Below are positions 6,859 through 53,790 of a stretch of DNA of 64,000 nucleotides, piece after piece. The notes beneath the pieces are model-generated. The model had not been told where the DNA came from. It saw only the letters and a list, made by a program, of their open reading frames with translations, and ran no database searches. The stretch is from positions 5,321 to 69,320 of the forward strand of contig JALNYP010000001.1 in NCBI GenBank assembly GCA_023229795.1, given 5' to 3'. Made by a program: the position numbers and the translations under genes. Positions within the stretch are counted from its first letter, which is position 1. Each line of letters opens with the position of its first letter. This stretch comes from Syntrophobacterales bacterium. Lineage in GTDB: Bacteria > Desulfobacterota > Desulfobaccia > Desulfobaccales > 0-14-0-80-60-11.

Positions 6859-8268
6859 CTAGGCAGAGGTCGGCCCGGCGAAGCCCTCCGGCGCCGGACG
6901 CCGGGGATCGACGAGTTGGAAGCGGCGCATCTTGTTGAACAGGGTGGTGCGGCTGATCCCCAGGCTGCGGGCGCTGAGCTGGCGGTTCCAGCTAAAGGAT
7001 TCCAGGGCATTGATGAGGATTTCCCTCTCGGCCAGGGCCAGGGCTTCCTCCAGCTTGAGGTGCTTGAGGGCCTCCCGAGGGGTGGCCGGCTTGCTTTCCC
7101 GGATATTGCCGGGCAAGGATTCGGGGACGATAAACTCCCCGGGGCTTAAAATGACCGCCCGTTCGATGACATTCTCCAACTCCCGGACATTCCCCGGCCA
7201 CGGGTATTGGAGACAGATCTGCAGGGTGCTCTTGGAGATGCCCTTGATCTCTTTATGGTGAATCTGGTTGAAATGCTTGATAAAATGCAGGGCCAGGGGT
7301 TCGATGTCGCTCAAACGGTCCCGCAGGGGCGGGATGGTGAAGGAGACCACATTGATGCGGTAATACAGGTCTTCCCGGAAGTTCTGCTTGGCCACTTCGT
7401 CCTGGAGGGAAGTATTGGTGGCGGTGATGATCCGCACATCCGTCTGATAGGGGACATTGCCGCCGACGCGTTCGATGACCTTTTCCTGGAGGACGCGCAG
7501 GAGCTTGACCTGGAGATTAGCGGAGGCGGAGTTAATGTCGTCCAGGAAGATGGTGCCGCCGTTGGCCTCCTCGAATTTGCCTTTTTTGTCCCGGATGGCC
7601 CCGGTAAAGGAGCCCCGCACATGGCCGAAAAGCTCGCTTTCCAGCAGGGTTTCGGAGAGCGAACCGCAACTGATCTTGACGAAGGGACCTTCCCGGCGGT
7701 GAGAGTGGTCGTGGATATAGCGGGCCAGCATGGACTTGCCGGTGCCCGATTCGCCGGTGATCAGGACCGTGGCCATGGTGTCGGCAATGGTGTGGACCAT
7801 TTCGAGGAGGCGGTCCATCTTGCGGTCCCCGAAGACCAGGGTCTCGTCCAGGGCCCAGGGCTTAAGGCGCTGCTTCAGGGTGTTATAGGAGGCCTGGAGC
7901 TTTTTCTGCTCCAAGGCGTGGCCGATGGTGAGCTTGAGACGCAGATCGTCGATGGGCTTGGTAATGTAGTCGTAGGCTCCCAGTTTAATGGCTTCGACCG
8001 CGCCGGCGATATGGCCGTGGCCGGTGATAAAGATGACCAGGGTGTCGGGAGCCCGCCCTTTCAGCTCCTTGAGCAGCTCGAAACCGTCAAGCCCCGGCAT
8101 TTGGATATCGGAGAGGATAAGAGAGTATTTTACCCCCCTAAGGTTCTCCAAGGCGGCTTGGCCGCTCAGCACCGCGTCCACGGTGAAGCCTTCCATCAAG
8201 AGCATCTCTTTGAGAGACTCGCAGACCAGGGAATCATCATCCACGATCAAGAGGTCTTTAGTCGCCAT
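6859..8268 (-). CDS. Sigma-54-dependent response regulator (NtrC/AtoC family)
   Basis: REC domain (LLIVDDDS...DIQMPGLDG), AAA+ Walker A GESGTGKS, the GSFTGA sigma-54 contact motif, and a C-terminal Fis-type HTH. Confidence 0.9.
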   Translation of the reverse strand: MATKDLLIVDDDSLVCESLKEMLLMEGFTVDAVLSGQAALENLRGVKYSLILSDIQMPGLDGFELLKELKGRAPDTLVIFITGHGHIAGAVEAIKLGAYDYITKPIDDLRLKLTIGHALEQKKLQASYNTLKQRLKPWALDETLVFGDRKMDRLLEMVHTIADTMATVLITGESGTGKSMLARYIHDHSHRREGPFVKISCGSLSETLLESELFGHVRGSFTGAIRDKKGKFEEANGGTIFLDDINSASANLQVKLLRVLQEKVIERVGGNVPYQTDVRIITATNTSLQDEVAKQNFREDLYYRINVVSFTIPPLRDRLSDIEPLALHFIKHFNQIHHKEIKGISKSTLQICLQYPWPGNVRELENVIERAVILSPGEFIVPESLPGNIRESKPATPREALKHLKLEEALALAEREILINALESFSWNRQLSARSLGISRTTLFNKMRRFQLVDPRRPAPEGFAGPTSA

Positions 8269-43794: not shown

Positions 43795-44271
43795 GTGAGG
43801 GAAGAAAACCGGGGCTACCGCGCCTTGATCCTGGGCCTGGCCACCTGGGCCGGGGTCGGGTTCCTGCCCTGGATGCCCGGGACCTGGGGGACCCTGGCGG
43901 CCCTGCCGCTGTGGTACCATCTCGCCCGGCTGGGCCCCTGGGGTTACGGCCTGGGGCTGGCGGCCGTTTTAGTCCTGGGGCTGTGGGCCGCGGGCCCGGC
44001 CCAACGGTTTTTGGGCCGCACCGACCACCCGTCCATCGTGGTGGACGAAGTCGCGGGGCTCCTAATCACCCTGGCCGGCGTGCCGGCGACCTGGGAGAAT
44101 GCGGCCCTGGGTTTTGTCATCTTTCGGACCCTGGACATCCTGAAACCCGGGCCCATCCGCTGGTTCGGCGAAGGTACAGGCGCCCTGGAAGTCATGGCCG
44201 ACGACGTGGCCGCGGGGGTGATCGGGCGGGTGATTATAGAAGTGGTGATGGTTTTTTGGAGTAGGGGTTAA
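43795..44271 (+). CDS. pgpA: Phosphatidylglycerophosphatase A
   Basis: GVGFLPWMPGTWGTLAALPL..., DHPSIVVDEVAG..., FRTLDILKP, DDVAAGV. Confidence 0.88.
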   Translation: MREENRGYRALILGLATWAGVGFLPWMPGTWGTLAALPLWYHLARLGPWGYGLGLAAVLVLGLWAAGPAQRFLGRTDHPSIVVDEVAGLLITLAGVPATWENAALGFVIFRTLDILKPGPIRWFGEGTGALEVMADDVAAGVIGRVIIEVVMVFWSRG

Positions 44272-44312: not shown

Positions 44313-45344
44313 ATGCGACTAGATTTCCACTTTTATACGATCTATGTCCTGTCAAGAGTTGTGGGTTTCAGTCCGGATAACGCCTATGTCATAGCTTATG
44401 CTTCACAATATACGGATGATGAAGCTAGTGAGAATCCCATATTGTTCGAAAACGGCGGTGAGCTTGAACCAATCATTACGGCTCATCGGATTTTTGACCC
44501 GGGGGCAGTCACAGAGAGAATCTGTAAGAAGGTGTGGATTCCATTCCATTTTGTGCCTGGGAATTTAGGAATAGGTGATGAGCAAATGCTCACCAGAGCC
44601 AATAGTTCATTGACGCAAGCAATGATTAATGAATTGTTGAGTTACGATTTATTACCTTATAGCCGCCATCTTTTAGGCATTATGCTGCATGCCTATGCAG
44701 ATACCTGGTCACATCAAAATTTCATGGGCATGGTTAATGGAATGAATGAAGCTTCACAGCTGAGGGTGAATGGAGAAGATATTTGGCTCTATAACCTCGC
44801 ACCCGCCCTCGGCCATGCGCAAACCGGGGCTACGCCGGATGAACCGAGGCTGGAATGGGAATATCTTGATTATAAGGGTGAGCTTCATCGGGTGGCCAAT
44901 TATAATCGAGCTATAGAGGCGGCGCAAAATTGTCATAAGGTGCTATCTCAGTTCATTGATAAATTTGAGGATGACTTCCGTGATTCACAGTTCATTCCCT
45001 GGGAGCAGATTGCAGGGAAGATCATGGAGTTATTTCGAACACCAACCGATTTAGCGGGGTCCGTAACTGCTTGGGGAGAGGCCATTACTGCTAGTGAATT
45101 TGGATTTCAATCGCAAGGCAAAGATATCAATTTAATCTATGATGCCAGTGAATGGTTCAATGTGGCAATTAAATCTGAATCGATTCTAAATCAAGAATCA
45201 GGTCAATTCATAGAATGTTTTTTTAAAAATGATAATTATGAATCAAGTGACCTGAAGTATTTTAATGAGGCCGCGGGTTTTTATTGGTCTACTTTATTTA
45301 ATAATAACGCGGAGAGATTTGGTTTGAATAGTGCTTTGATTTAA
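44313..45344 (+). CDS. Hypothetical protein with His/Asp motifs reminiscent of the zinc phospholipase C / P1-nuclease fold (AT-rich insertion)
   Basis: 343-aa uninterrupted ORF in AT-rich DNA. Motifs FHFYTIYV...AYASQYTDD, IPFHFVPG, LHAYADTWSHQNF, LGHAQTGATPDEP. The family assignment is tentative. Confidence 0.65.
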   Translation: MRLDFHFYTIYVLSRVVGFSPDNAYVIAYASQYTDDEASENPILFENGGELEPIITAHRIFDPGAVTERICKKVWIPFHFVPGNLGIGDEQMLTRANSSLTQAMINELLSYDLLPYSRHLLGIMLHAYADTWSHQNFMGMVNGMNEASQLRVNGEDIWLYNLAPALGHAQTGATPDEPRLEWEYLDYKGELHRVANYNRAIEAAQNCHKVLSQFIDKFEDDFRDSQFIPWEQIAGKIMELFRTPTDLAGSVTAWGEAITASEFGFQSQGKDINLIYDASEWFNVAIKSESILNQESGQFIECFFKNDNYESSDLKYFNEAAGFYWSTLFNNNAERFGLNSALI

Positions 45345-45501: not shown

Positions 45502-46740
45502 ATGATGCAAGGTGAGATCATTGCCACCGGCACGGAGTTGATTACCGGCCAGGTGGCTGACTGTAACACCCATTATGCCGCCCGGCGGTTGTTCGAGGCC
45601 GGCTTGGAGGTGGCGCGTTTCACCACAGTGGGCGATAAAGGTCCGCTGATCCGGGAAGTCCTGGAGCAGGCCATGAGCCGGTCGCAGTTTATCATTATTA
45701 CCGGCGGCCTGGGGCCCACCGAAGACGATGTCACCCTGCCGGCCGCGGCCCTGGCTCTAGATCGGCGCCTGGTGGTCCATGACGGCCTGTTGGACCGCAT
45801 TAAACGCTGTCTGGGGGCGCGGCAGATCCCCTGGGAGGAGCGCTATGCCGGACTGGCTCTGATCCCGGAAGGCGCGCAGCTTTTGGACCCGGGCGGCATG
45901 GCCTGCGGCTTTGCCGTGAAACATGAGGAAGTCCGCCTCTATTTCCTGCCCGGGGTCCCTCAGGAAATGCGGAGTCTGTTCGACGGCTTCGTGCTTCCCA
46001 ATTTGGTGGCCTGGGCCCAGCCGGAAGAATATTGGGTCCGGCGCACCCTGCGGCTGTTCGGAATTTCCGAAGGCCAGTTGCAGGGAGTAATCTGCCGGCG
46101 GCCGGAGTTTCAGCAGGGCGTGACCGTGGGGTATTACCCCCATTTTCCTGAAACCCACTTGAGTCTGACGCTGCGGGGGAAGGACCGCGCCGTGCTCAAT
46201 GCTAGCCTGGACCGCCTCACGGCTGCTCTGGGCGCAGAGGTGGGCGAAGCGCTGCTGGGGCCGGAGGAAGCCACCCTGGAAGAGCTGGTGGGCCGCCTGC
46301 TCAGGACGGGCGGGCTCACCGTGGCGGTGGCGGAGTCCTGCACCGGCGGCCTCATCGGCGACCGGCTCACCAACGTGCCCGGGTCTTCGGATTATTTTCT
46401 GGGCGGGGTGGTGAGTTACAGCAACGAGGCCAAGCACGATTTGCTGAAGGTGCCGCCGGAGGTCCTGGCCCAAAAGGGGGCGGTGAGCCCGGAGACCGCC
46501 GGGGACATGGCCCGGGGGGTCAGAGAAGTCTTTCATGCCGATATCGGGTTGGCGGTGACGGGTATCGCGGGCCCGAGCGGCGGCAGCCCGGCCAAACCCG
46601 TGGGCACCGTGTACATCGGCCTGGCCGACACCGAAGGCGAAGACGTCTGGCACTATCAGTTTTACGGCAACCGGACGGAGATCAAGACCCTGACGGCCCA
46701 GACCGCGTTGGACCGCCTGCGCCGGAAGTTGAAAACGTAG
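45502..46740 (+). CDS. cinA: CinA: MoCF-binding domain plus nicotinamide-nucleotide amidohydrolase (PncC) domain
   Basis: EIIATGTELITGQVADCNT..., ITGGLGPTEDD, ESCTGGL..., GIAGPSGG. Confidence 0.9.
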   Translation: MMQGEIIATGTELITGQVADCNTHYAARRLFEAGLEVARFTTVGDKGPLIREVLEQAMSRSQFIIITGGLGPTEDDVTLPAAALALDRRLVVHDGLLDRIKRCLGARQIPWEERYAGLALIPEGAQLLDPGGMACGFAVKHEEVRLYFLPGVPQEMRSLFDGFVLPNLVAWAQPEEYWVRRTLRLFGISEGQLQGVICRRPEFQQGVTVGYYPHFPETHLSLTLRGKDRAVLNASLDRLTAALGAEVGEALLGPEEATLEELVGRLLRTGGLTVAVAESCTGGLIGDRLTNVPGSSDYFLGGVVSYSNEAKHDLLKVPPEVLAQKGAVSPETAGDMARGVREVFHADIGLAVTGIAGPSGGSPAKPVGTVYIGLADTEGEDVWHYQFYGNRTEIKTLTAQTALDRLRRKLKT

Positions 46741-46763
46741 GGTGGGCACGGCCCACCACCTCC

Positions 46764-46808
46764 GCTTTCACCTCGTTCCCAAGTGCAACTTGGGAACGAG
46801 GTGAAAGC
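46764..46808. repeat. Perfect 21-bp-stem hairpin (GTTCCCAAGT-GCA-ACTTGGGAAC core family)
   Basis: GCTTTCACCTCGTTCCCAAGT gca ACTTGGGAACGAGGTGAAAGC. The same core occurs at 40949-40973, with variants at 48521-48545 and 48603-48628. Confidence 0.9.
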
Positions 46809-46828
46809 GAACCGCTGAAAGCTCAAAA

Positions 46829-47395
46829 ATGATCCGTGCTTTCCTGGCCATAGAGATGCCTGACAGCTTCCGGACCGGCCTGGCCCTGGTCCAGGGGGAG
46901 CTGAAGCGCAGCCAGGCCGACGTGCGCTGGGTGGCGCCGGGCAATATTCATCTGACGTTGAAGTTCTTCGGGAACGTCCCCGATGACGAGATCGACACCC
47001 TGGCCCTGGCGGCCGGGGAGGTGGCGCAAGAAGAGGAGCCCTTTCAGCTCAAGGCGACCATTGCCGGGGCCTTTCCGTCCCCCAAGGCCCCCCGGGTGGT
47101 GTGGCTGGGGCTGGGCGGCGACGTGGTGCCCCTGAACCGGCTGTATCATAAGCTGGAGAAGGCCTTCGCGGCCCTGGGGTATCTCCCGGAAGGCCGGGCC
47201 TTCCATCCCCACCTCACGCTGGGCCGGGTCAAGTCCCCCATGAACCGGGAGAAGCTGGCCCGGATGCTGGAAAAGATGCCGCCCATGGACTGGCCGCCTT
47301 TCGCGGTGAAGGAGTTGATCCTGTTTCAGAGCGTCTTGTCGCCCCAGGGGTCGAGATATACGCCGTTGAAGGTGATTCCGTTGGGTAAAGTGTAG
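46829..47395 (+). CDS. thpR: RNA 2',3'-cyclic phosphodiesterase (2H family, LigT/ThpR)
   Basis: Two HxTx motifs (HLTLKF and HPHLTLGRV). 188 aa. Confidence 0.88.
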   Translation: MIRAFLAIEMPDSFRTGLALVQGELKRSQADVRWVAPGNIHLTLKFFGNVPDDEIDTLALAAGEVAQEEEPFQLKATIAGAFPSPKAPRVVWLGLGGDVVPLNRLYHKLEKAFAALGYLPEGRAFHPHLTLGRVKSPMNREKLARMLEKMPPMDWPPFAVKELILFQSVLSPQGSRYTPLKVIPLGKV

Positions 47396-47498
47396 GGTGG
47401 CCATTGCCCACCATTTATCTGAGCACCATATTGGCGCCGCCGCGCCGGGGGAAGAAAAGGACTTGACCAAAACCGGCCAATGTATTACATTGTAAGAC

Positions 47499-47720
47499 AT
47501 GAAGACCAACACATTGACCATCAGACTTGACGAGGAGTTGGATAAACTCCTGACCAAGGCGGCGAAGCAAGCGGGAAAGAATCGGAGTGAGATTGCCCGT
47601 GAGGCGTTGCGCCGCCAACTTCGGGTCAGTCAGTTCGAAGCCCTCCGCAGGAAGATTATGCCTTTCGCGGAGGCGCGGGGATATCTCACCGATGAGGACG
47701 TGTTCCAGGAAGTTTCATGA
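47499..47720 (+). CDS. Ribbon-helix-helix (CopG-like) antitoxin
   Basis: LTIRLDEELDKLLTKAAKQAGKNRSEIAREALRRQL. 4-nt overlap with the downstream PIN gene. Confidence 0.8.
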   Translation: MKTNTLTIRLDEELDKLLTKAAKQAGKNRSEIAREALRRQLRVSQFEALRRKIMPFAEARGYLTDEDVFQEVS

Positions 47721-48121
47721 GAGTTCTCCTGGACACCAACGTCATCGTCAGCGCGGTTGCGACCCGGGGGCTGTGCGCCGACGTCTTTCGTGCGGTTCTA
47801 GCAGCACATGAACTAGTCACCTGTCCACAGGTTCTTCAGGAGGTCCGGCGCATCTTGAGTATGAAGTTCGGGGTCCCGGAACCGTTGATCGCGGAATATC
47901 TGGAACTTATCGGGCAAGAAGCCATCGTGGCCGAGCCTGAAGACTTGCCGGACCTCCCCATCCAGGACCGGGATGACGCGCCCATCGTCGCGGCGGCCAT
48001 CGCCGCCCGGGCGCAGGTCCTGGTTACCGGCGATCACGAGCTGCAAGGCCTCAAGAACATCGAGCAACTAAGGATTATTTCCCCGAGGGCGTTCTGGGAA
48101 GAACTAACGGCCCAGGAATAA
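47717..48121 (+). CDS. PIN-domain toxin (type II TA)
   Basis: MRVLLDTNVIVSAV..., DRDDAPIVAAAI..., LVTGD are the acidic PIN residues. Confidence 0.8.
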   Translation: MRVLLDTNVIVSAVATRGLCADVFRAVLAAHELVTCPQVLQEVRRILSMKFGVPEPLIAEYLELIGQEAIVAEPEDLPDLPIQDRDDAPIVAAAIAARAQVLVTGDHELQGLKNIEQLRIISPRAFWEELTAQE

Positions 48122-48195
48122 AGGTTTGGCAGGGTGCGTCTTACGCACCATTGCAGAAGTCTCGGACATGGCGATCGCGTTATGGTGCTTCAAGC

Positions 48196-48380
48196 CGCAC
48201 CTCACCCTGGGCCGGGTGAAATCCCCGATGAACCGGGAGAAACTGGCCCGGATGCTGGAGAAGATGCCGCCGGTGGACTGGCCGCCCTTTGCGGTGAAGC
48301 AGTTGATCCTGTTTCAGAGCGTGTTGTCGCCGCAAGGGTCGAAATATACGCCGTTGAAGGCGATTCCCTTGGGGAGATAA
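48196..48380 (+). pseudogene. Orphan duplicate of the 3' end of thpR
   Basis: It encodes PHLTLGRVKSPMNREKLARMLEKMPPVDWPPFAVKQLILFQSVLSPQGSKYTPLKAIPLGR. By hand alignment it has 19 substitutions over 59 codons relative to 47208-47395, 14 of them synonymous. There is no 5' part of the gene. Confidence 0.85.
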
Positions 48381-48413
48381 TCGAGGCATGGTAGCCGCAG
48401 GCTTTAGAAAATC

Positions 48414-48628
48414 ATAGGGCGGCCCTTGGCCGCCGAAAAGAATTGGCGTGCAGGGCACGCCCTACATGGCTGTTCCGGGCACAGGCTGGAAAGCCTGTGC
48501 TACCAACAGCATTTTTTTCTGGTTCCCAAGCTGGGCTGGGAACCCTATTGAGTGCAGAGCTATGCTTTGCGAAATATTTCGGCCCGTTAGCCAAACTACG
48601 ATTTCCCAAGCAAAGCTTGGGAACGAGG
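48414..48628. repeat. Cluster of at least five REP-like hairpins from three dispersed families
   Basis: TAGGGCGGCCcttGGCCGCC, GGCGTGCagGGCACGCCCTAC, GCACAGGCTggaaAGCCTGTGC, GGTTCCCAgctgggcTGGGAACC and TTCCCAAGCaaaGCTTGGGAA, back to back. Confidence 0.8.
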
Positions 48629-48640
48629 AAAACCGATAAC

Positions 48641-48996
48641 GTGGAATTCCTTAAGACTATAGCAATAATTGTAGGAGTTATGGTTAGCGTAATAGGTATA
48701 ATGGGCGGAATTTTTTCTTTGCCAAATAGTTATAGGCGCTTTAGAAAAGGATTTTATCCACATGGTGAAAAGGGTACAGGTTCTATTGTACTATCCAAAA
48801 AAATAATAAATGAAAGACAGTTTGTAACTTTCCTTGTTATTGAAGATATTTTTCAATTTATTAAAGCATTTCTTCAACCAAAGGAATGGGGAGGGGAATT
48901 TGAATCAATAGAAAAAATTGGAGAATATTATAAAATAGTAATTTCCTATCCGAAAGAAAAAGAATTCAATTTCTATATAACCAAGGGGAACAAAAA

Positions 48997-49000
<4 letters not shown>
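48641..49000 (+). CDS. Small AT-rich membrane-anchored hypothetical protein, stop overlapping the recA start
   Basis: GTG start with a [33 protein letters not shown] (one TM helix) followed by a Lys/Glu-rich domain. The ATGA overlap with recA falls at 48997-49000. Codon composition is unlike the flanks. Confidence 0.5.
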
Positions 49001-50025
<1,025 letters not shown>

Positions 50026-50028
50026 GAC

Positions 50029-52671
50029 ATGACCAGCCGCGAGATCCGGGAGACCTTTTTACGTTTTTTCGCCTCCAAAGGCCACACCAGGGTGACCAGT
50101 TCCTCCTTGGTTCCCGCCGGAGACCCCACCCTGCTGTTTACCAACGCCGGGATGGTGCAATTTAAAAAGGTGTTCCTGGGGGAAGACCCCCGCCCCTATA
50201 CCCGGGCCGCCACCTCCCAGAAGTGCGTCCGGGCCGGCGGCAAACACAACGACCTGGAAAACGTGGGCTTTACCGCCCGCCACCACACCTTCTTTGAGAT
50301 GCTGGGGAATTTTTCCTTCGGCGACTATTTCAAGGAAGGGGTCATCGAGATGGCCTGGGAACTCCTGACCCAACATTATAAACTCCCGGCGGATAAGCTC
50401 TGGGCCACCGTGTTCCATGAAGACGAAGACGCGGCCCGCCTCTGGGAGAAGATCGCCGGGCTGCCGCCGGACCGCATCATCGGCATGGGCGAAAAAGACA
50501 ACTTTTGGGCCATGGGGGACACCGGGCCCTGCGGCCCCTGCTCCGAAATCCTCATTGATCAGGGCGAGAGCATGGCCTGCGGCCCGGAGTGCGGCATCGG
50601 CAAGTGCGAATGCGACCGCTATCTCGAGATCTGGAACCTGGTCTTCATGCAGTATAACCGGACCCCGGACGGCGTCCTGCACCCCCTGCCCAAACCCAGT
50701 ATCGACACGGGTATGGGCCTGGAGCGCCTCTGCGCGGTCATCCAGGGGGTCAAGAGCAATTTCGACTGCGACCTCTTGCGGCCGGTGATCGCGGGGGTCG
50801 AAGAGCTGGCCGGCCAGGCATACGGCGCCAGCGACACGCAGAACGTGCCCTTCCGGGTCATCGCGGATCATTCCCGGGCCACCGCTTTTCTCATTGCCGA
50901 CGGCGTGCTGCCCTCCAACGAGGGCCGGGGCTACGTGCTCAGGCGCATTATGCGCCGGGCCATCCGGTTCGGGCGGCTCCTGAACCTGCCCACCCCGTTT
51001 CTGGCCAGAGTCTGCGACCGGGTGGTGGACCTCATGGGCGAGGTCTATCCCGAACTGCACCAGATGCACCATATCATGGCCCAGGTGGTGACCAGCGAAG
51101 AAGAGCGTTTTGCCGACACCCTGGACCATGGCCTGAAGCTCCTGGGCGATGAGCTGGAGTACCTCAAGCACCACAGCCTGAAGATCCTGCCGGGAGAGGT
51201 GGCCTTCAAGCTCTACGACACCTACGGCTTCCCTCTGGACCTGGTCCAGGACACCCTGCGGGAAGAGGGGCTGGTGCTGGACCTGGAAGGCTTCGAGGCG
51301 AACATGCGGGCCCAGAAGGAGGCCTCCCGGCAGTCCTGGAAAGGCGGGCCGGGGGAAGAGCTGCCCGCGGTCTATCAGGAGCTGGCGGAATGGCCAGCCA
51401 CGCAATTCCTGGGCTATGAGGCCCTGGAGGCCGACAGCACCATCCTGGCCCTCATCGTGGAGGGCGGCCACAACTCTCAGGCCGAAGCCGGGGAGGACGT
51501 GGAGGTCATCACCGGGGCCACGCCGTTTTACGGCGAGTCCGGCGGCCAGGTGGGGGACACGGGGCTGATCTATGGCGACGGCTGGTCCATCCGCATCAGC
51601 GGCACCCAAAAACTGCCCAACGACCTCATGGTGCATGAGGGCAAGGTCGAGGCCGGCACCGTTCACGTCAATGACCCGGCGCACCTGGAAGTGGACGCGG
51701 CCCGGCGCCGCCGCATCATGGCCCACCACACCGCCACCCACCTCCTCCAGGCCGTGTTGCGGCGCCATTTGGGCGACCACGTCAAGCAGTCCGGCTCCCT
51801 GGTGGACCCGGAGCGCCTGCGCTTCGACTTTACCCACTACCAGGCCATCACCCCTGAGGAACTGGAGGCCATCGAACTGGATCTGAACGAGGCCGTGGCC
51901 GCCAACCTGCCGGTACACACGGATAAGATGTCCATGACCGAGGCCCTGGAGCAGGGAGCCACCGCCCTGTTCGAGGAAAAGTACGGCGACGAAGTGCGGG
52001 TGGTGAGCGTCCCCGAGGTCAGCCAGGAACTCTGCGGCGGCACCCATGTGGAGCGCACCGGCGATCTGGGGCTCTGTAAAATCACCACCGAGACCTCTAT
52101 TGCCGCGGGTATCCGCCGCATCGAGGCGGTGTGCGGCGTGGAAGCGGTGAAGCTCACCCAGGACCAGGCCCGGGAACTGGACCAGGCCGCGGGCCTTCTC
52201 AAGGGCGGCCGGGCCGACCTGGTGACCCGGCTGGAAAAGATGCTGGCCAACCAGAAAAAACTGGAAAAAGAAGTGGAGGCCCTCAAGGGCCGCCTGGCTT
52301 CCACCCAGGCCCGAGACCTGGTGGATCAGGTGCGCCAGGTGGAGGGGGTGCAAGTCCTGGCCCTGAAGGTGGACGCCGCGGACCCCAAGAGCCTCCGGGA
52401 CTTTGCGGTGAAATTCCAGGATAAGCTGAAAAGCGGCATCGTGGTCCTGGGCAGCGACGCGGGCGACAAGGCCATGCTCATCGCCCTGGTATCCAAAGAC
52501 CTGACCAAACGCTTCCCTGCCGGGGAGATCATCAAAGCCATCGCCCCTACCATCGGCGGCAGCGGCGGCGGCCGCCCCGATATGGCCCAGGCCGGCGGCC
52601 CGGACAAGGACAAAATCCCTGCTGCTTTGGAGATGGCGTATGAGGTGATTGGTAGGAAGGTCGAGGAATAA
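50029..52671 (+). CDS. alaS: Alanine--tRNA ligase
   Basis: FTNAGMVQFK, KHNDLENVG, editing-domain HTATHLL and the C-terminal DHHA1 GGGRPDMAQAGG. 880 aa. Confidence 0.95.
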   Translation: MTSREIRETFLRFFASKGHTRVTSSSLVPAGDPTLLFTNAGMVQFKKVFLGEDPRPYTRAATSQKCVRAGGKHNDLENVGFTARHHTFFEMLGNFSFGDYFKEGVIEMAWELLTQHYKLPADKLWATVFHEDEDAARLWEKIAGLPPDRIIGMGEKDNFWAMGDTGPCGPCSEILIDQGESMACGPECGIGKCECDRYLEIWNLVFMQYNRTPDGVLHPLPKPSIDTGMGLERLCAVIQGVKSNFDCDLLRPVIAGVEELAGQAYGASDTQNVPFRVIADHSRATAFLIADGVLPSNEGRGYVLRRIMRRAIRFGRLLNLPTPFLARVCDRVVDLMGEVYPELHQMHHIMAQVVTSEEERFADTLDHGLKLLGDELEYLKHHSLKILPGEVAFKLYDTYGFPLDLVQDTLREEGLVLDLEGFEANMRAQKEASRQSWKGGPGEELPAVYQELAEWPATQFLGYEALEADSTILALIVEGGHNSQAEAGEDVEVITGATPFYGESGGQVGDTGLIYGDGWSIRISGTQKLPNDLMVHEGKVEAGTVHVNDPAHLEVDAARRRRIMAHHTATHLLQAVLRRHLGDHVKQSGSLVDPERLRFDFTHYQAITPEELEAIELDLNEAVAANLPVHTDKMSMTEALEQGATALFEEKYGDEVRVVSVPEVSQELCGGTHVERTGDLGLCKITTETSIAAGIRRIEAVCGVEAVKLTQDQARELDQAAGLLKGGRADLVTRLEKMLANQKKLEKEVEALKGRLASTQARDLVDQVRQVEGVQVLALKVDAADPKSLRDFAVKFQDKLKSGIVVLGSDAGDKAMLIALVSKDLTKRFPAGEIIKAIAPTIGGSGGGRPDMAQAGGPDKDKIPAALEMAYEVIGRKVEE

Positions 52672-52710: not shown

Positions 52711-52932
52711 ATGCCTAATAAATTTACCGCGGTAATTACCAAAGAAGAAGAATGGTATGTGGCTTATTGCATGGAGTTAGGAGTGGTGAGCCAGGGGAAA
52801 ACCATCGAAGAAGCCCAAGCTAATCTGCGGGAGGCCGTTGAGCTTTACCTCGAAAGCTTTGGAGCAGAAGACCTTCCCAAAACCACCGGAGAAATGATGC
52901 TCTATCCCTTTGAGGTGGCAGTAGGTGGCTAA
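52711..52932 (+). CDS. hicB: HicB-family antitoxin
   Basis: FTAVITKEEEWYVAYCMELGVVSQGKTIEEAQANLREAVELYLE. Overlaps the downstream hicA. Confidence 0.8.
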   Translation: MPNKFTAVITKEEEWYVAYCMELGVVSQGKTIEEAQANLREAVELYLESFGAEDLPKTTGEMMLYPFEVAVGG

Positions 52933-53140
52933 AATTCCTGCCTTATCCGGTGAGAACCTGATTAAGGCTCTAAAGAAAGCAGGATTTCACCAGGTGCGCA
53001 CAAGGGGTAGCCATGTAAGCTTGGAGAATGGCCCTTATCGAACCGTGGTGCCGCTTCACGATGAGCTTTCCCGAGGAACCCTCTTGGCAATTTTGAAGCA
53101 GTGCGGTTTATCAAAGGAAGAGCTTTTAAAGTTACTCTAG
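52925..53140 (+). CDS. hicA: HicA-family mRNA-interferase toxin
   Basis: LSGENLIKALKKAGFHQVRTRGSHVSL...VVPLH.ELSRGTLLAILKQCGLSKEE. GTG start. Confidence 0.8.
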   Translation: MAKIPALSGENLIKALKKAGFHQVRTRGSHVSLENGPYRTVVPLHDELSRGTLLAILKQCGLSKEELLKLL

Positions 53141-53172: not shown

Positions 53173-53271
53173 CGCCCCGACATGGCCCAGGCCGGGGGCC
53201 TGGATAAGGACAAAATCCCCGCTGCCCTGGAGATGGCGTATGAGGTGATCGCTAAGAAGGCGAAGGGGTAA
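53173..53271 (+). pseudogene. Orphan duplicate of the 3' end of alaS
   Basis: It encodes RPDMAQAGGLDKDKIPAALEMAYEVIAKKAKG*, against RPDMAQAGGPDKDKIPAALEMAYEVIGRKVEE* at 52573-52671. The offset is exactly 600 nt and I counted 15 nucleotide differences in 99 nt by hand. Confidence 0.85.
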
Positions 53272-53345
53272 AGATTGGGGGGAGGGGCTAAGGTCGGGAG
53301 CTTTTTAACCCCTCCCACAATCCCGTAAGTAATGTGGGGTGTTCC

Positions 53346-53558
53346 ATGAAAAAGCATAGATTCACCGTATTGATCGAACGGGATGATGATGGTTACTTAG
53401 TGGCCATGGTTCCGGCTCTCAAGAGCTGCTATACGCAAGCGAAGACTATGGAAGAACTCATGCCCCGGATCAAAGAAGTCATAGAACTGTGCTTGCAGGA
53501 AGAAGAACCGGTGATTATGAGTTTTGAGGGAGTTCAGCAGATAGAGATTGTGGCATGA
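53346..53558 (+). CDS. hicB: HicB-family antitoxin (second copy)
   Basis: FTVLIERDDDGYLVAMVPALKSCYTQAKTMEELMPRIKEVIELCLQEE. Confidence 0.75.
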   Translation: MKKHRFTVLIERDDDGYLVAMVPALKSCYTQAKTMEELMPRIKEVIELCLQEEEPVIMSFEGVQQIEIVA

Positions 53559-53790
53559 GCCGTCTGCCACCATCAGTCCTGGCCTGATGGTAAAATTTCT
53601 TCTGGAAATAGGATTTGAGAAGAGCCCCCAACATGGGAGCCATATCTTTTTCCGCCATCCTGATGGCCGCACCGCCACAGTTCCATTCCATAAAGGGGAA
53701 GATTTGGGTCGCGGTTTGACCAGCAAAATTCTCCACGATATAGATGTCTCGCGCGACTTTTTCTTGGCCTGGCTGGCAAAAAATCCATGA
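53555..53790 (+). pseudogene. hicA: HicA-family toxin with an early frameshift
   Basis: The ATG at 53555 overlaps the hicB stop (ATGA) and reads MSRLPPSVLA* (stop 53585). The HicA body (ISPGLMVKFLLEIGFEKSPQHGSHIFFRHPDGRTATVPFH...) is in the -1 frame. One missing base in CCA CCn restores MSRLPPISPGL. Confidence 0.65.

Follow-up and report, generated by a model that had tools for sequence, protein, structure and literature searches.

How does a toxin-antitoxin (TA) cassette come to lie between two copies of the 3' end of a housekeeping gene? The question is raised by a 64,000-nucleotide (nt) stretch of contig JALNYP010000001.1 (Syntrophobacterales bacterium, assembly GCA_023229795.1, positions 5,321 to 69,320 of the forward strand), hereafter the window, whose genome is labeled W. 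In it, an RHH antitoxin gene and a PIN-domain toxin gene stand between thpR, which encodes an RNA 2',3'-cyclic phosphodiesterase, and a second, displaced copy of the end of thpR. A first-pass annotation of the window had described this arrangement as the capture of a TA cassette by a single (Campbell-type) crossover. The answer that we favor, and consider probable, is that W received the cassette from a related lineage by homologous recombination within thpR and that the displaced copy arrived with it.

Repeat searches and local alignment recovered one ungapped direct repeat at this locus, 47200-47385 versus 48188-48373 (186 nt, 20 mismatches, 89.2% identity; BLAST E-value 2.6e-69), with the copies 988 nt apart. 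The duplication of the thpR end around the RHH-PIN pair is thus real, with the coordinates of the first-pass annotation (47208-47395 and 48196-48380) shifting by about 8 nt. thpR itself (46829-47395; 188 amino acids [aa]; 94-96% nt identity to thpR of the closest relative, L101) is intact and matches LigT_PEase (Pfam, 7.9e-29) and TIGR02258 (NCBIfam, 9.9e-46); like both copies of its end, the TA genes, their promoter, and the cassette ends described below, it lies on the plus strand. The repeat homology stops about 7 nt ahead of the copy-1 stop codon, and the stop regions are unlike, reading GGT AAA GTG TAG in copy 1 and GGG AGA TAA in copy 2. Within the thpR frame (47207-47386, 60 codons), the copies differ at 19 positions, as had been counted by hand, of which 15 rather than 14 are synonymous and 4 are nonsynonymous by codon count. 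By the Nei-Gojobori method, the proportions of synonymous (pS) and nonsynonymous (pN) differences are 0.34 and 0.029, giving a dN/dS of about 0.07-0.09. The longest run identical between the W copies is 22 nt, and the frame of copy 2 still matches the C-terminal half of LigT_PEase (Pfam, 1.7e-5). Duplication in situ followed by decay was considered and rejected on two grounds: the 15:4 synonymous excess compares with about 37% synonymous changes expected under neutrality (P = 2.4e-4), and copy 2 is closer to other lineages than to copy 1 of W.

Comparison with relatives bears on which copy is native, a point that the first-pass annotation had left undecided. L101 is 94-97% identical to W in nt over pgpA, the DUF6765 gene, cinA, thpR, recA, and alaS (pooled pS 0.122, dS 0.133), and its site is empty, with thpR followed by 168 nt and recA and with no TA pair; the empty cinA-thpR-recA site that had been predicted thus exists in the closest relative. 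Copy 1 (47200-47385) is 96.2% identical to the L101 thpR end (7/186 mismatches) and is therefore the native, functional thpR 3' end; copy 2 is 89.8% identical to the same target. A contrary assignment of copy 1 as the foreign end was also tried, in which its stop region, GGGTAAAGTGTAGGG, was first read as a donor-type end common to L010 and L014 and copy 1 itself as an outlier; comparison with L098 and L101 ruled this out, the "unique" states of copy 1 proving to be lineage specific. The copy-1 stop region is a repetitive extragenic palindromic (REP)-like element overwriting a GGG AAA TAA-type end. The stop codons of both cinA and thpR copy 1 lie inside such a hairpin element (GTAGGGTGG...), and the last residue of ThpR is thereby altered relative to that of L101.

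Copy 2 (48188-48380) is a displaced thpR 3' fragment, or pseudo-end, linked to the cassette and built as a three-part mosaic. At its left edge, the A/G states aligned with 47204 and 47206 match only the fragment of L098, a relative (host dS 0.26) that has the same architecture and junction as W, but with an older, decayed fragment. The body is of the functional type found in L102 and L098: it is 96.1% identical to the L102 functional end, 93.0% to that of L098, and 90.7% to W copy 1 (90.7-91.5% to copy 1/L101), and 82.9% identical to the decayed L098 fragment. This agrees with the earlier suggestion that copy 2 is not a locally decayed duplicate and has the functional-type end of a related lineage. 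The third part, comprising the stop (GGG AGA TAA) and the following ATGGTAGCCGCAGGCTTTAG, belongs to a native downstream type shared with L003, L004, L002, and L101, and it leads into native-type thpR-downstream sequence with several REP-like hairpins (48381-48640) that is collinear with the empty sites of L004 (86%) and L003. Copy 1 is a mosaic too, as expected from recombination within the repeat: its tail from 47383 on, together with the REP and the spacer, is L098-like (spacer 95.3%). The native character of copy 1 extends to about 47347-47383 and gives way there to donor-like sequence, and copy 2 is donor-like up to that region. Since the copy-1 tail is L098-like and the copies are identical across 47348-47372 except for one private change, the exchange point is placed by these affinities between 47347 and 47383.

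Two further measurements bear on the timing. Copy 2 carries 4 private changes in 186 nt, where about 12.4 (0.066 × 186) would be expected under neutral drift since the split of W and L101 (Poisson P of about 0.006, taking synonymous divergence as an approximation of the neutral rate), and this shortage argues that copy 2 is younger than the split. Between W and L098, the TA genes are 96.0% identical (pS 0.10-0.12), compared with 90.1% for cinA, 92.4% for alaS, and 87.6% for pgpA (pS 0.23-0.27).

The inserted pair has the features of a self-contained type II TA cassette with its own predicted promoter and operator. The RHH (CopG-type) antitoxin gene (47499-47720; 73 aa; Pfam RHH_1, 4e-9) lies upstream of the PIN-domain toxin gene (47717-48121; 134 aa; PIN_3/TIGR00305; Pfam PIN_3, 1.7e-16), with a 4-nt overlap, and all scores exceed the curated cutoffs (PIN_3, 61.5 bits versus 27; RHH_1, 36.5 versus 20.5; TIGR00305, 40.8 versus 29.15). 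A promoter scan placed the candidate promoter/operator at 47463-47498, with TTGACC (47463-47468) and TACATT (47486-47491) separated by 17 nt. The RHH ATG begins 8 nt past the -10 hexamer, so the cassette mRNA is probably leaderless. The block from CTTGACC to AATGTAnTACATTGTAAGACATG is kept in every TA-positive locus. A dif/Xer-like site was sought, and the sole palindrome, AATGTATTACATT at 47479-47491, overlaps the -10 hexamer within the cassette and is best read as a candidate RHH operator. In the order of its overlapping genes, its palindromic operator, and its above-threshold family matches, the cassette resembles VapBC-like type II TA systems of the PIN plus RHH/CopG kind, with toxicity here predicted; it differs from them in being unusually conserved and confined to one locus. 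The antitoxin is 92-99% identical in aa among relatives whose RecA proteins are 82-92% identical, and the median aa distance over L001-L033 is 0.027 for the antitoxin versus 0.139 for RecA. PIN homologs form >120 protein clusters at 84-94% identity, and across 109 homologs 39 positions are invariant. PIN nt distances stay at about 12-15% and do not rise with host distance; because the variation is confined to about 60 sites of two or three states each, we keep this flatness only as weak evidence of horizontal spread.

The pair is also widely distributed. A ThpR scan of species-representative genomes yielded 15 loci from Desulfobaccales/Thermodesulfobacteriota metagenome-assembled genomes at 71-84% ThpR identity, 8 of which have the RHH-PIN pair directly after thpR, while in 6 without the pair thpR is followed by recA or by native intergenic sequence. 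Altogether, some 30 lineages of a Desulfobaccales-like group have the cassette in the thpR-recA interval, including hosts with as little as 63% ThpR and 63% CinA identity to W; in a metagenome PIN scan, all PIN homologs of at least 84% identity with sufficient flanks sit between these two genes. Homologs of 55-73% identity occur in other genomic contexts, and no long flanking repeats were found around them. In this group, then, the pair is an accessory module of long standing, tied to a single locus, and not a novelty of W, contrary to the earlier picture of a new capture. Besides L101, empty sites occur in L003, L004, L006, L008, L011, L104, and the P0129 contig. The thpR 3' end on the gene was not seen to hitchhike with the TA pair, as copy-1 ends follow host distances (rho 0.78-0.84).

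Nor is the thpR fragment new; it is an old part of the cassette. At the left, the cassette begins with a REP-like hairpin (stem-loop at 47396-47412) and a spacer (47392-47462), which is 95.3% identical to the L098 spacer and missing in L101. In its right end, X (48122-48187), a second REP hairpin (48133-48149) is followed by a spacer and then by a truncated inverted REP, TTATGGTGC, to which the thpR fragment is joined; two hairpins and a truncated third (48177-48187) thus lie between the copies, where the first-pass annotation had listed one. X is 96.9% identical to that of L098 and 86% to that of L010, with an identical junction, and the untruncated inverted REP is found in L029 and L027. The full order of this end, running from the PIN stop through a REP hairpin, about 30 nt, the inverted REP, and GGCC to the thpR fragment, is complete in L027, whose join, CTACGGCC to TGGAAAAAG, has microhomology with thpR CTACCGGCTGGAAAAGG. 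L027 and L015 share the full inverted REP; in both, the fragment that follows it starts 240 nt from the end of thpR, and the microhomology is CTAC(C)GGC(C)TGG. L015 combines the L027-type join with an internal deletion, and L029 has the W-type spacer with a complete inverted REP. In the derived junction common to W, L098, and L010, the truncated inverted REP is fused to position -192 and reads TTATGGTGC joined to (T/C)TCAA. The fragment starts 192 nt before the thpR end in W and L098, 186 nt in L010, at least 240 nt in L027, 121 nt in L015, 98 nt in L030, 82 nt in L002, and 58 nt in L009; L030, L002, and L009 represent other trimmed versions, and L007 has a 40-nt repeat of intergenic sequence in place of the fragment. 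L001, L013, and L014 have the TA pair and no fragment. A single thpR end with the pair at the same place, which had been named as the sign of an ancestral tandem duplication, is thus present in these three; it does not imply one, because the existing fragments are of foreign type.

We read these joins as the product of a single founding event followed by differing trimmings, and the cassette-fragment unit as identical by descent in W, L098, and L010, though their hosts belong to different subclades. The fragment was probably fused to the cassette once, long ago, via an illegitimate join at microhomology. The L098 fragment is 90.2% identical to the L009 functional end versus 84.9% to its own copy 1, and the L010 fragment is 92.8% identical to the L013 functional end versus 87.8% to its own copy 1. 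Synonymous:nonsynonymous counts between copies are 15:4 in W, 17:7 in L010, and 11:2 in L030, and some of these fragments, with stop codons or indels, are clear pseudogenes. In W, L098, and L010, the fragment is thus closer to a functional end of another lineage than to its own copy 1; its body has therefore been renewed from the functional thpR genes of related lineages, and its junction to the cassette is old.

Several families of GC-rich REP-like hairpins populate the intergenic spaces of the region (46738-46809, 47392-47413, 48130-48149, 48418-48510, and 48514-48632); a regular-expression REP search undercounts them, its patterns being too strict. In L009 (7327-7473), L013 (7349-7534), L028 (4486-4671), and L033 (2723-2908), an extra HicB-like gene lies directly 3' of the PIN gene; in those of the four that have a thpR fragment, it separates this fragment from the cassette.

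The window contains only two local direct repeats of at least 45 nt, and the other one also brackets a TA pair. A second copy of the final 99 nt of alaS (52573-52671) lies at 53173-53271 with 85% identity, and between the copies lie a HicB-like antitoxin gene (52711-52932; weaker HicB_lk/UPF0150 match) and a HicA toxin gene (52925-53140; HicA_toxin, 2.9e-17), all on the plus strand. Copy 1, on the gene, ends in a foreign-type tail (RKVEE, then stop) and is 87.9% identical to the L101 alaS end, the rest of alaS being 96% identical; copy 2 has the native tail (KKAKG, then stop), continues into native downstream sequence, and shows 94.9% identity with the L101 functional alaS end, marking it as a displaced native end. 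L101 has no TA pair after alaS; L008 has the same HicBA pair there with an alaS fragment, and L014 has this pair too. The architecture is that of the thpR locus, except that here it is the gene that carries the foreign copy and its native end that has been displaced. One copy being foreign at each of the two cassettes, simple duplication of the recipient's target is ruled out. A third small TA pair, with a HicB-like ORF (open reading frame; 53334-53558) and a HicA-like ORF (53548-53790), follows directly, without a long flanking repeat.

Because L101 is empty, the copy-2 body is foreign, its private changes are few, and the TA genes are closer to those of L098 than the host genes are, we consider it probable that W gained the cassette and its fragment from an L098/L102-like relative after the split from L101, by homologous recombination within thpR. 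That this was a gain in W rather than a loss in L101 is an inference, and so are RecA dependence and whatever form the incoming DNA took. The cassette has one place in the Desulfobaccales-like group, directly after thpR and before recA, and its right end would carry, as a permanent fusion, a pseudogenic piece of the 3' end of thpR. Host homologous recombination, with no recombinase, would drive gain, loss, and exchange among related lineages, the homology being supplied at the left by thpR and at the right by the cassette-borne thpR fragment, its downstream sequence, or recA. An exchange near the right end of the repeat (47347-47383) would leave the native thpR end on the gene as copy 1, and the thpR end of the previous host, brought by the cassette, would become copy 2. 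The incoming DNA could be a 988-nt circle, formed by recombination between the repeats and inserted by a single crossover, or a linear fragment inserted by two. Homology-driven import thus stands from the original proposal of a Campbell crossover; a circular substrate is one possibility, and linear import from a donor with a refreshed fragment, with crossovers at the thpR end and near recA, fits equally well.

Several points weigh against this account. The comparison genomes are all metagenome assemblies, and L098 and L101 were both drawn from one bin, GCA_040961035.1, which holds two versions of the tyrS-pcnB-pgpA-cinA-thpR-recA-alaS locus, of which only one has the TA pair, and therefore mixes two populations co-occurring in one sample. 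The decisive segments are 130-190 nt long with few informative sites, and the choice of L102 over L098 as the donor proxy turns on 5 versus 9 mismatches. The roughly 0.6 kb from copy 2 to recA (48408-48992) has no counterpart in L101 or L098, and the 34 nt after copy 2 are closer to L003 (30/31) than to L101; the right part of copy 2 and the sequence after it may therefore come from the recipient, as a Campbell event predicts, or from the donor, as linear import predicts. No circular form was observed. The flat PIN divergence could mean saturation at a limited number of variable sites and not transfer. Finally, the present state would also result if L101 had lost the cassette and an old fragment in W had later been refreshed by recombination, although this is less parsimonious.

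A stricter version of homology-driven import, possible if on balance the less probable course of events, is a full Campbell cycle in which the repeats of a donor recombine to release a 988-nt circle, made up of the thpR arm, REP, spacer, RHH, PIN, and X, that reinserts by one reciprocal crossover at an empty thpR end in a related cell, the thpR arm being retemplated at each passage on the functional thpR of the last host. In Campbell integration, as known from suicide plasmids, a direct duplication brackets the insert, the copies are reciprocal chimeras, and the process depends on RecA and on no site-specific enzyme. An L098-like donor whose repeats recombined near their left edge would predict the three-part mosaic of copy 2 with no extra conversion step. 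The cycle would also account for the identical junction across hosts of different clades and for the match of the W, L098, and L010 fragments each to the functional end of another lineage. A further point in its favor is that the crossovers lie at opposite repeat ends in the two TA cassettes. However, no circle was seen, and the sequence downstream of copy 2 is not demonstrably the recipient's; W shows no replicon or vector, the presumed circle is <1 kb, and, with an arm of 89% identity (about 11% diverged), it would be a poor RecA substrate. Passage from cell to cell is left unexplained by the cycle, no plasmid or phage carrier having been found. We know of no description of natural, repeated Campbell-type integration by a TA cassette.

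Long vertical residence is unlikely, though parts of the record favor it. Here, the cassette and repeat would have been present in the ancestor of W and L101, lost in L101 by recombination between the repeats, and, in W, copy 2 would have been overwritten from the functional thpR of a relative by gene conversion or imported DNA. The cassette and its junction do predate the split of W and L098 and are common to L010, the group-wide occupancy fits long residence with repeated losses, and a clean empty site is what recombination between the repeats would leave behind. Against this, two events (the refresh in W and the loss in L101) are needed where a gain needs one, the source of the refresh cannot have been copy 1 of W (90.7% versus 96.1% to L102), and the TA genes of W and L098 have diverged about half as far as the host genes.

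Insertion in situ with a long target duplication, in which both copies would stem from the recipient's thpR end and have diverged later, is quite improbable for the W event. The model comes from restriction-modification (RM) systems: Furuta, Abe, and Kobayashi (2010, PMC2853133; see also Gene 259:99, 2000) describe insertions of RM modules, which act by postsegregational killing and lack mobility genes, between direct repeats that measure tens to hundreds of bp. Many of these repeats run across a stop codon, leaving the target gene intact, and a related genome has the site empty. A life cycle based on the repeats was put forward for such modules and, as far as the accounts in PMC2853133 and PMC3874152 go, never shown. 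The likeness is considerable, in that W also has an addiction module without a mobility gene, direct repeats of >30 bp (186 nt) spanning the stop codon as in PMC2853133, an intact target gene, an insert of <20 kb (0.8 kb), and a related empty site (L101) that aligns to a single repeat copy. The differences are that the W module is a type II TA system, that one repeat copy is foreign and of functional type (identity to the L101 end, 96.2% versus 89.8% at thpR and 87.9% versus 94.9% at alaS), so the two copies do not both come from the recipient's target, and that the repeat is long-lived and shared across lineages. Copies differing by 10.8%, where W and L101 differ by about 4-6%, one foreign-type copy at both TA cassettes, and mostly synonymous differences contradict the model for W, although it could describe the ancestral event.

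Very improbable is a remnant of an integrase-bearing island at the thpR 3' end that supplied a replacement end, the repeats being attL and attR and the integrase deleted. Elements that target gene 3' ends do leave gene-end direct repeats, as is generally known and is discussed in PMC2853133; the locus resembles such islands and prophages in these repeats, in a gene kept intact by a supplied end, and, at alaS, in an element-type tail on the gene. However, Pfam, tRNA, and Rfam scans found no integrase, transposase, tRNA, or Rfam family within about 10 kb of the cassette in W, no tRNA, tmRNA, or other RNA gene was found as an attachment site, and no recombinase is encoded among the called genes between thpR and recA of L098, L099, L101, and L102, the short intervals of the other relatives not having been scanned for integrases. 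The repeat varies from 40 to >240 nt with differing left boundaries and has no block of identity that could serve as a conserved core site, and the element is a TA pair of 0.6-0.8 kb (insert of only 0.8 kb in W). The cassette has no match in plasmid, phage, or IMG/VR collections. Integron traits are likewise lacking, with no integrase and no Rfam or structured match, no dedicated attC model having been used; the earlier statement that no recombinase or attC-like element is present holds to that extent. The cassette also has its own promoter, unlike typical integron cassettes. It is neither an integrase island nor an integron cassette.

The repeat structure is not an assembly artifact, since its joins recur in the independently assembled Logan contig L017 (SRR18595301; 100% identical over 46776-48227, which takes in thpR and both TA genes and reaches into copy 2) and in L098, L099, and L100, three assemblies of a related population with the same architecture as W; a chimeric or collapsed join of co-occurring strains, the alternative named in the first-pass annotation, is scarcely credible even given the metagenomic source and at least one bin with two populations in different locus states, because copies diverged by 11% would not collapse and the cassette-fragment junction is also present in L010, from another study.

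Among known routes, the cassette looks like a case of Campbell or flanking-homology integration, and its founding junction resembles homology-facilitated illegitimate recombination. That process, which de Vries and Wackernagel are said to have described in 2002 for natural transformation, reportedly combines one-sided homology with a microhomology join at the opposite side. The oldest junction, in L027, shares CTAC(C)GGC(C)TGG between the cassette end and thpR, and a donor with the TA pair behind thpR would yield such a duplication; it covers the founding event only, and the later spread of an identical junction needs fully homologous exchange. Accounts of the spread of chromosomal TA systems mostly invoke plasmids, phages, integrons, and transposons; spread without transposases or integrases is, to our knowledge, poorly documented. 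In W, two TA pairs stand behind two housekeeping genes, each with a native and a foreign gene end and each absent from the closest relative, which suggests that the route is ordinary homologous recombination, with a gene-end fragment carried along by the cassette as its guide. This would extend the long target duplication of RM modules to TA systems and refine it, the repeat being a carried arm and not a duplicated target. Both long local repeats of the window (2/2) fit such a pattern. As a tentative and rather doubtful generalization, the type II TA cassettes of the group may be recombinase-free mobile elements that land at the 3' ends of essential or housekeeping genes, carry a pseudogenic homology arm, are released by RecA-mediated recombination between the repeats, reinsert by a single crossover in related cells, and have the arm retemplated at each passage on the functional gene of the last host. 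If so, the arm would stay matched to close relatives and record the previous host, and toxin addiction would penalize loss. The displaced fragment marks the donor lineage and could be used to trace gene flow among uncultured relatives of sulfate reducers. The cassette adjoins recA, and its antitoxin is more conserved than RecA, a conservation that may be of functional interest.

The surroundings of the cassette in W are ordered as pgpA (43795-44271), the DUF6765 gene (44313-45344), cinA (45502-46740), thpR, RHH, PIN, the thpR-like fragment, an AT-rich ORF (48641-49000), recA (48997-50025), and alaS (50029-52671). The DUF6765 gene, between pgpA and cinA, is AT rich (31-50% GC versus about 65% in its surroundings); it is present in L101 and absent in L098 and the other relatives and is therefore another accessory insertion within a conserved neighborhood. 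The ORF at 48641-49000 is very AT rich (26-38% GC), encodes 119 aa that match no family, and overlaps the recA start codon with its end. Different AT-rich ORFs occupy the corresponding site in relatives (L098, at 7579-8160; L002, L007, and L014, in the PIN-recA interval), and the space 5' of recA therefore looks like a hotspot for small variable genes.

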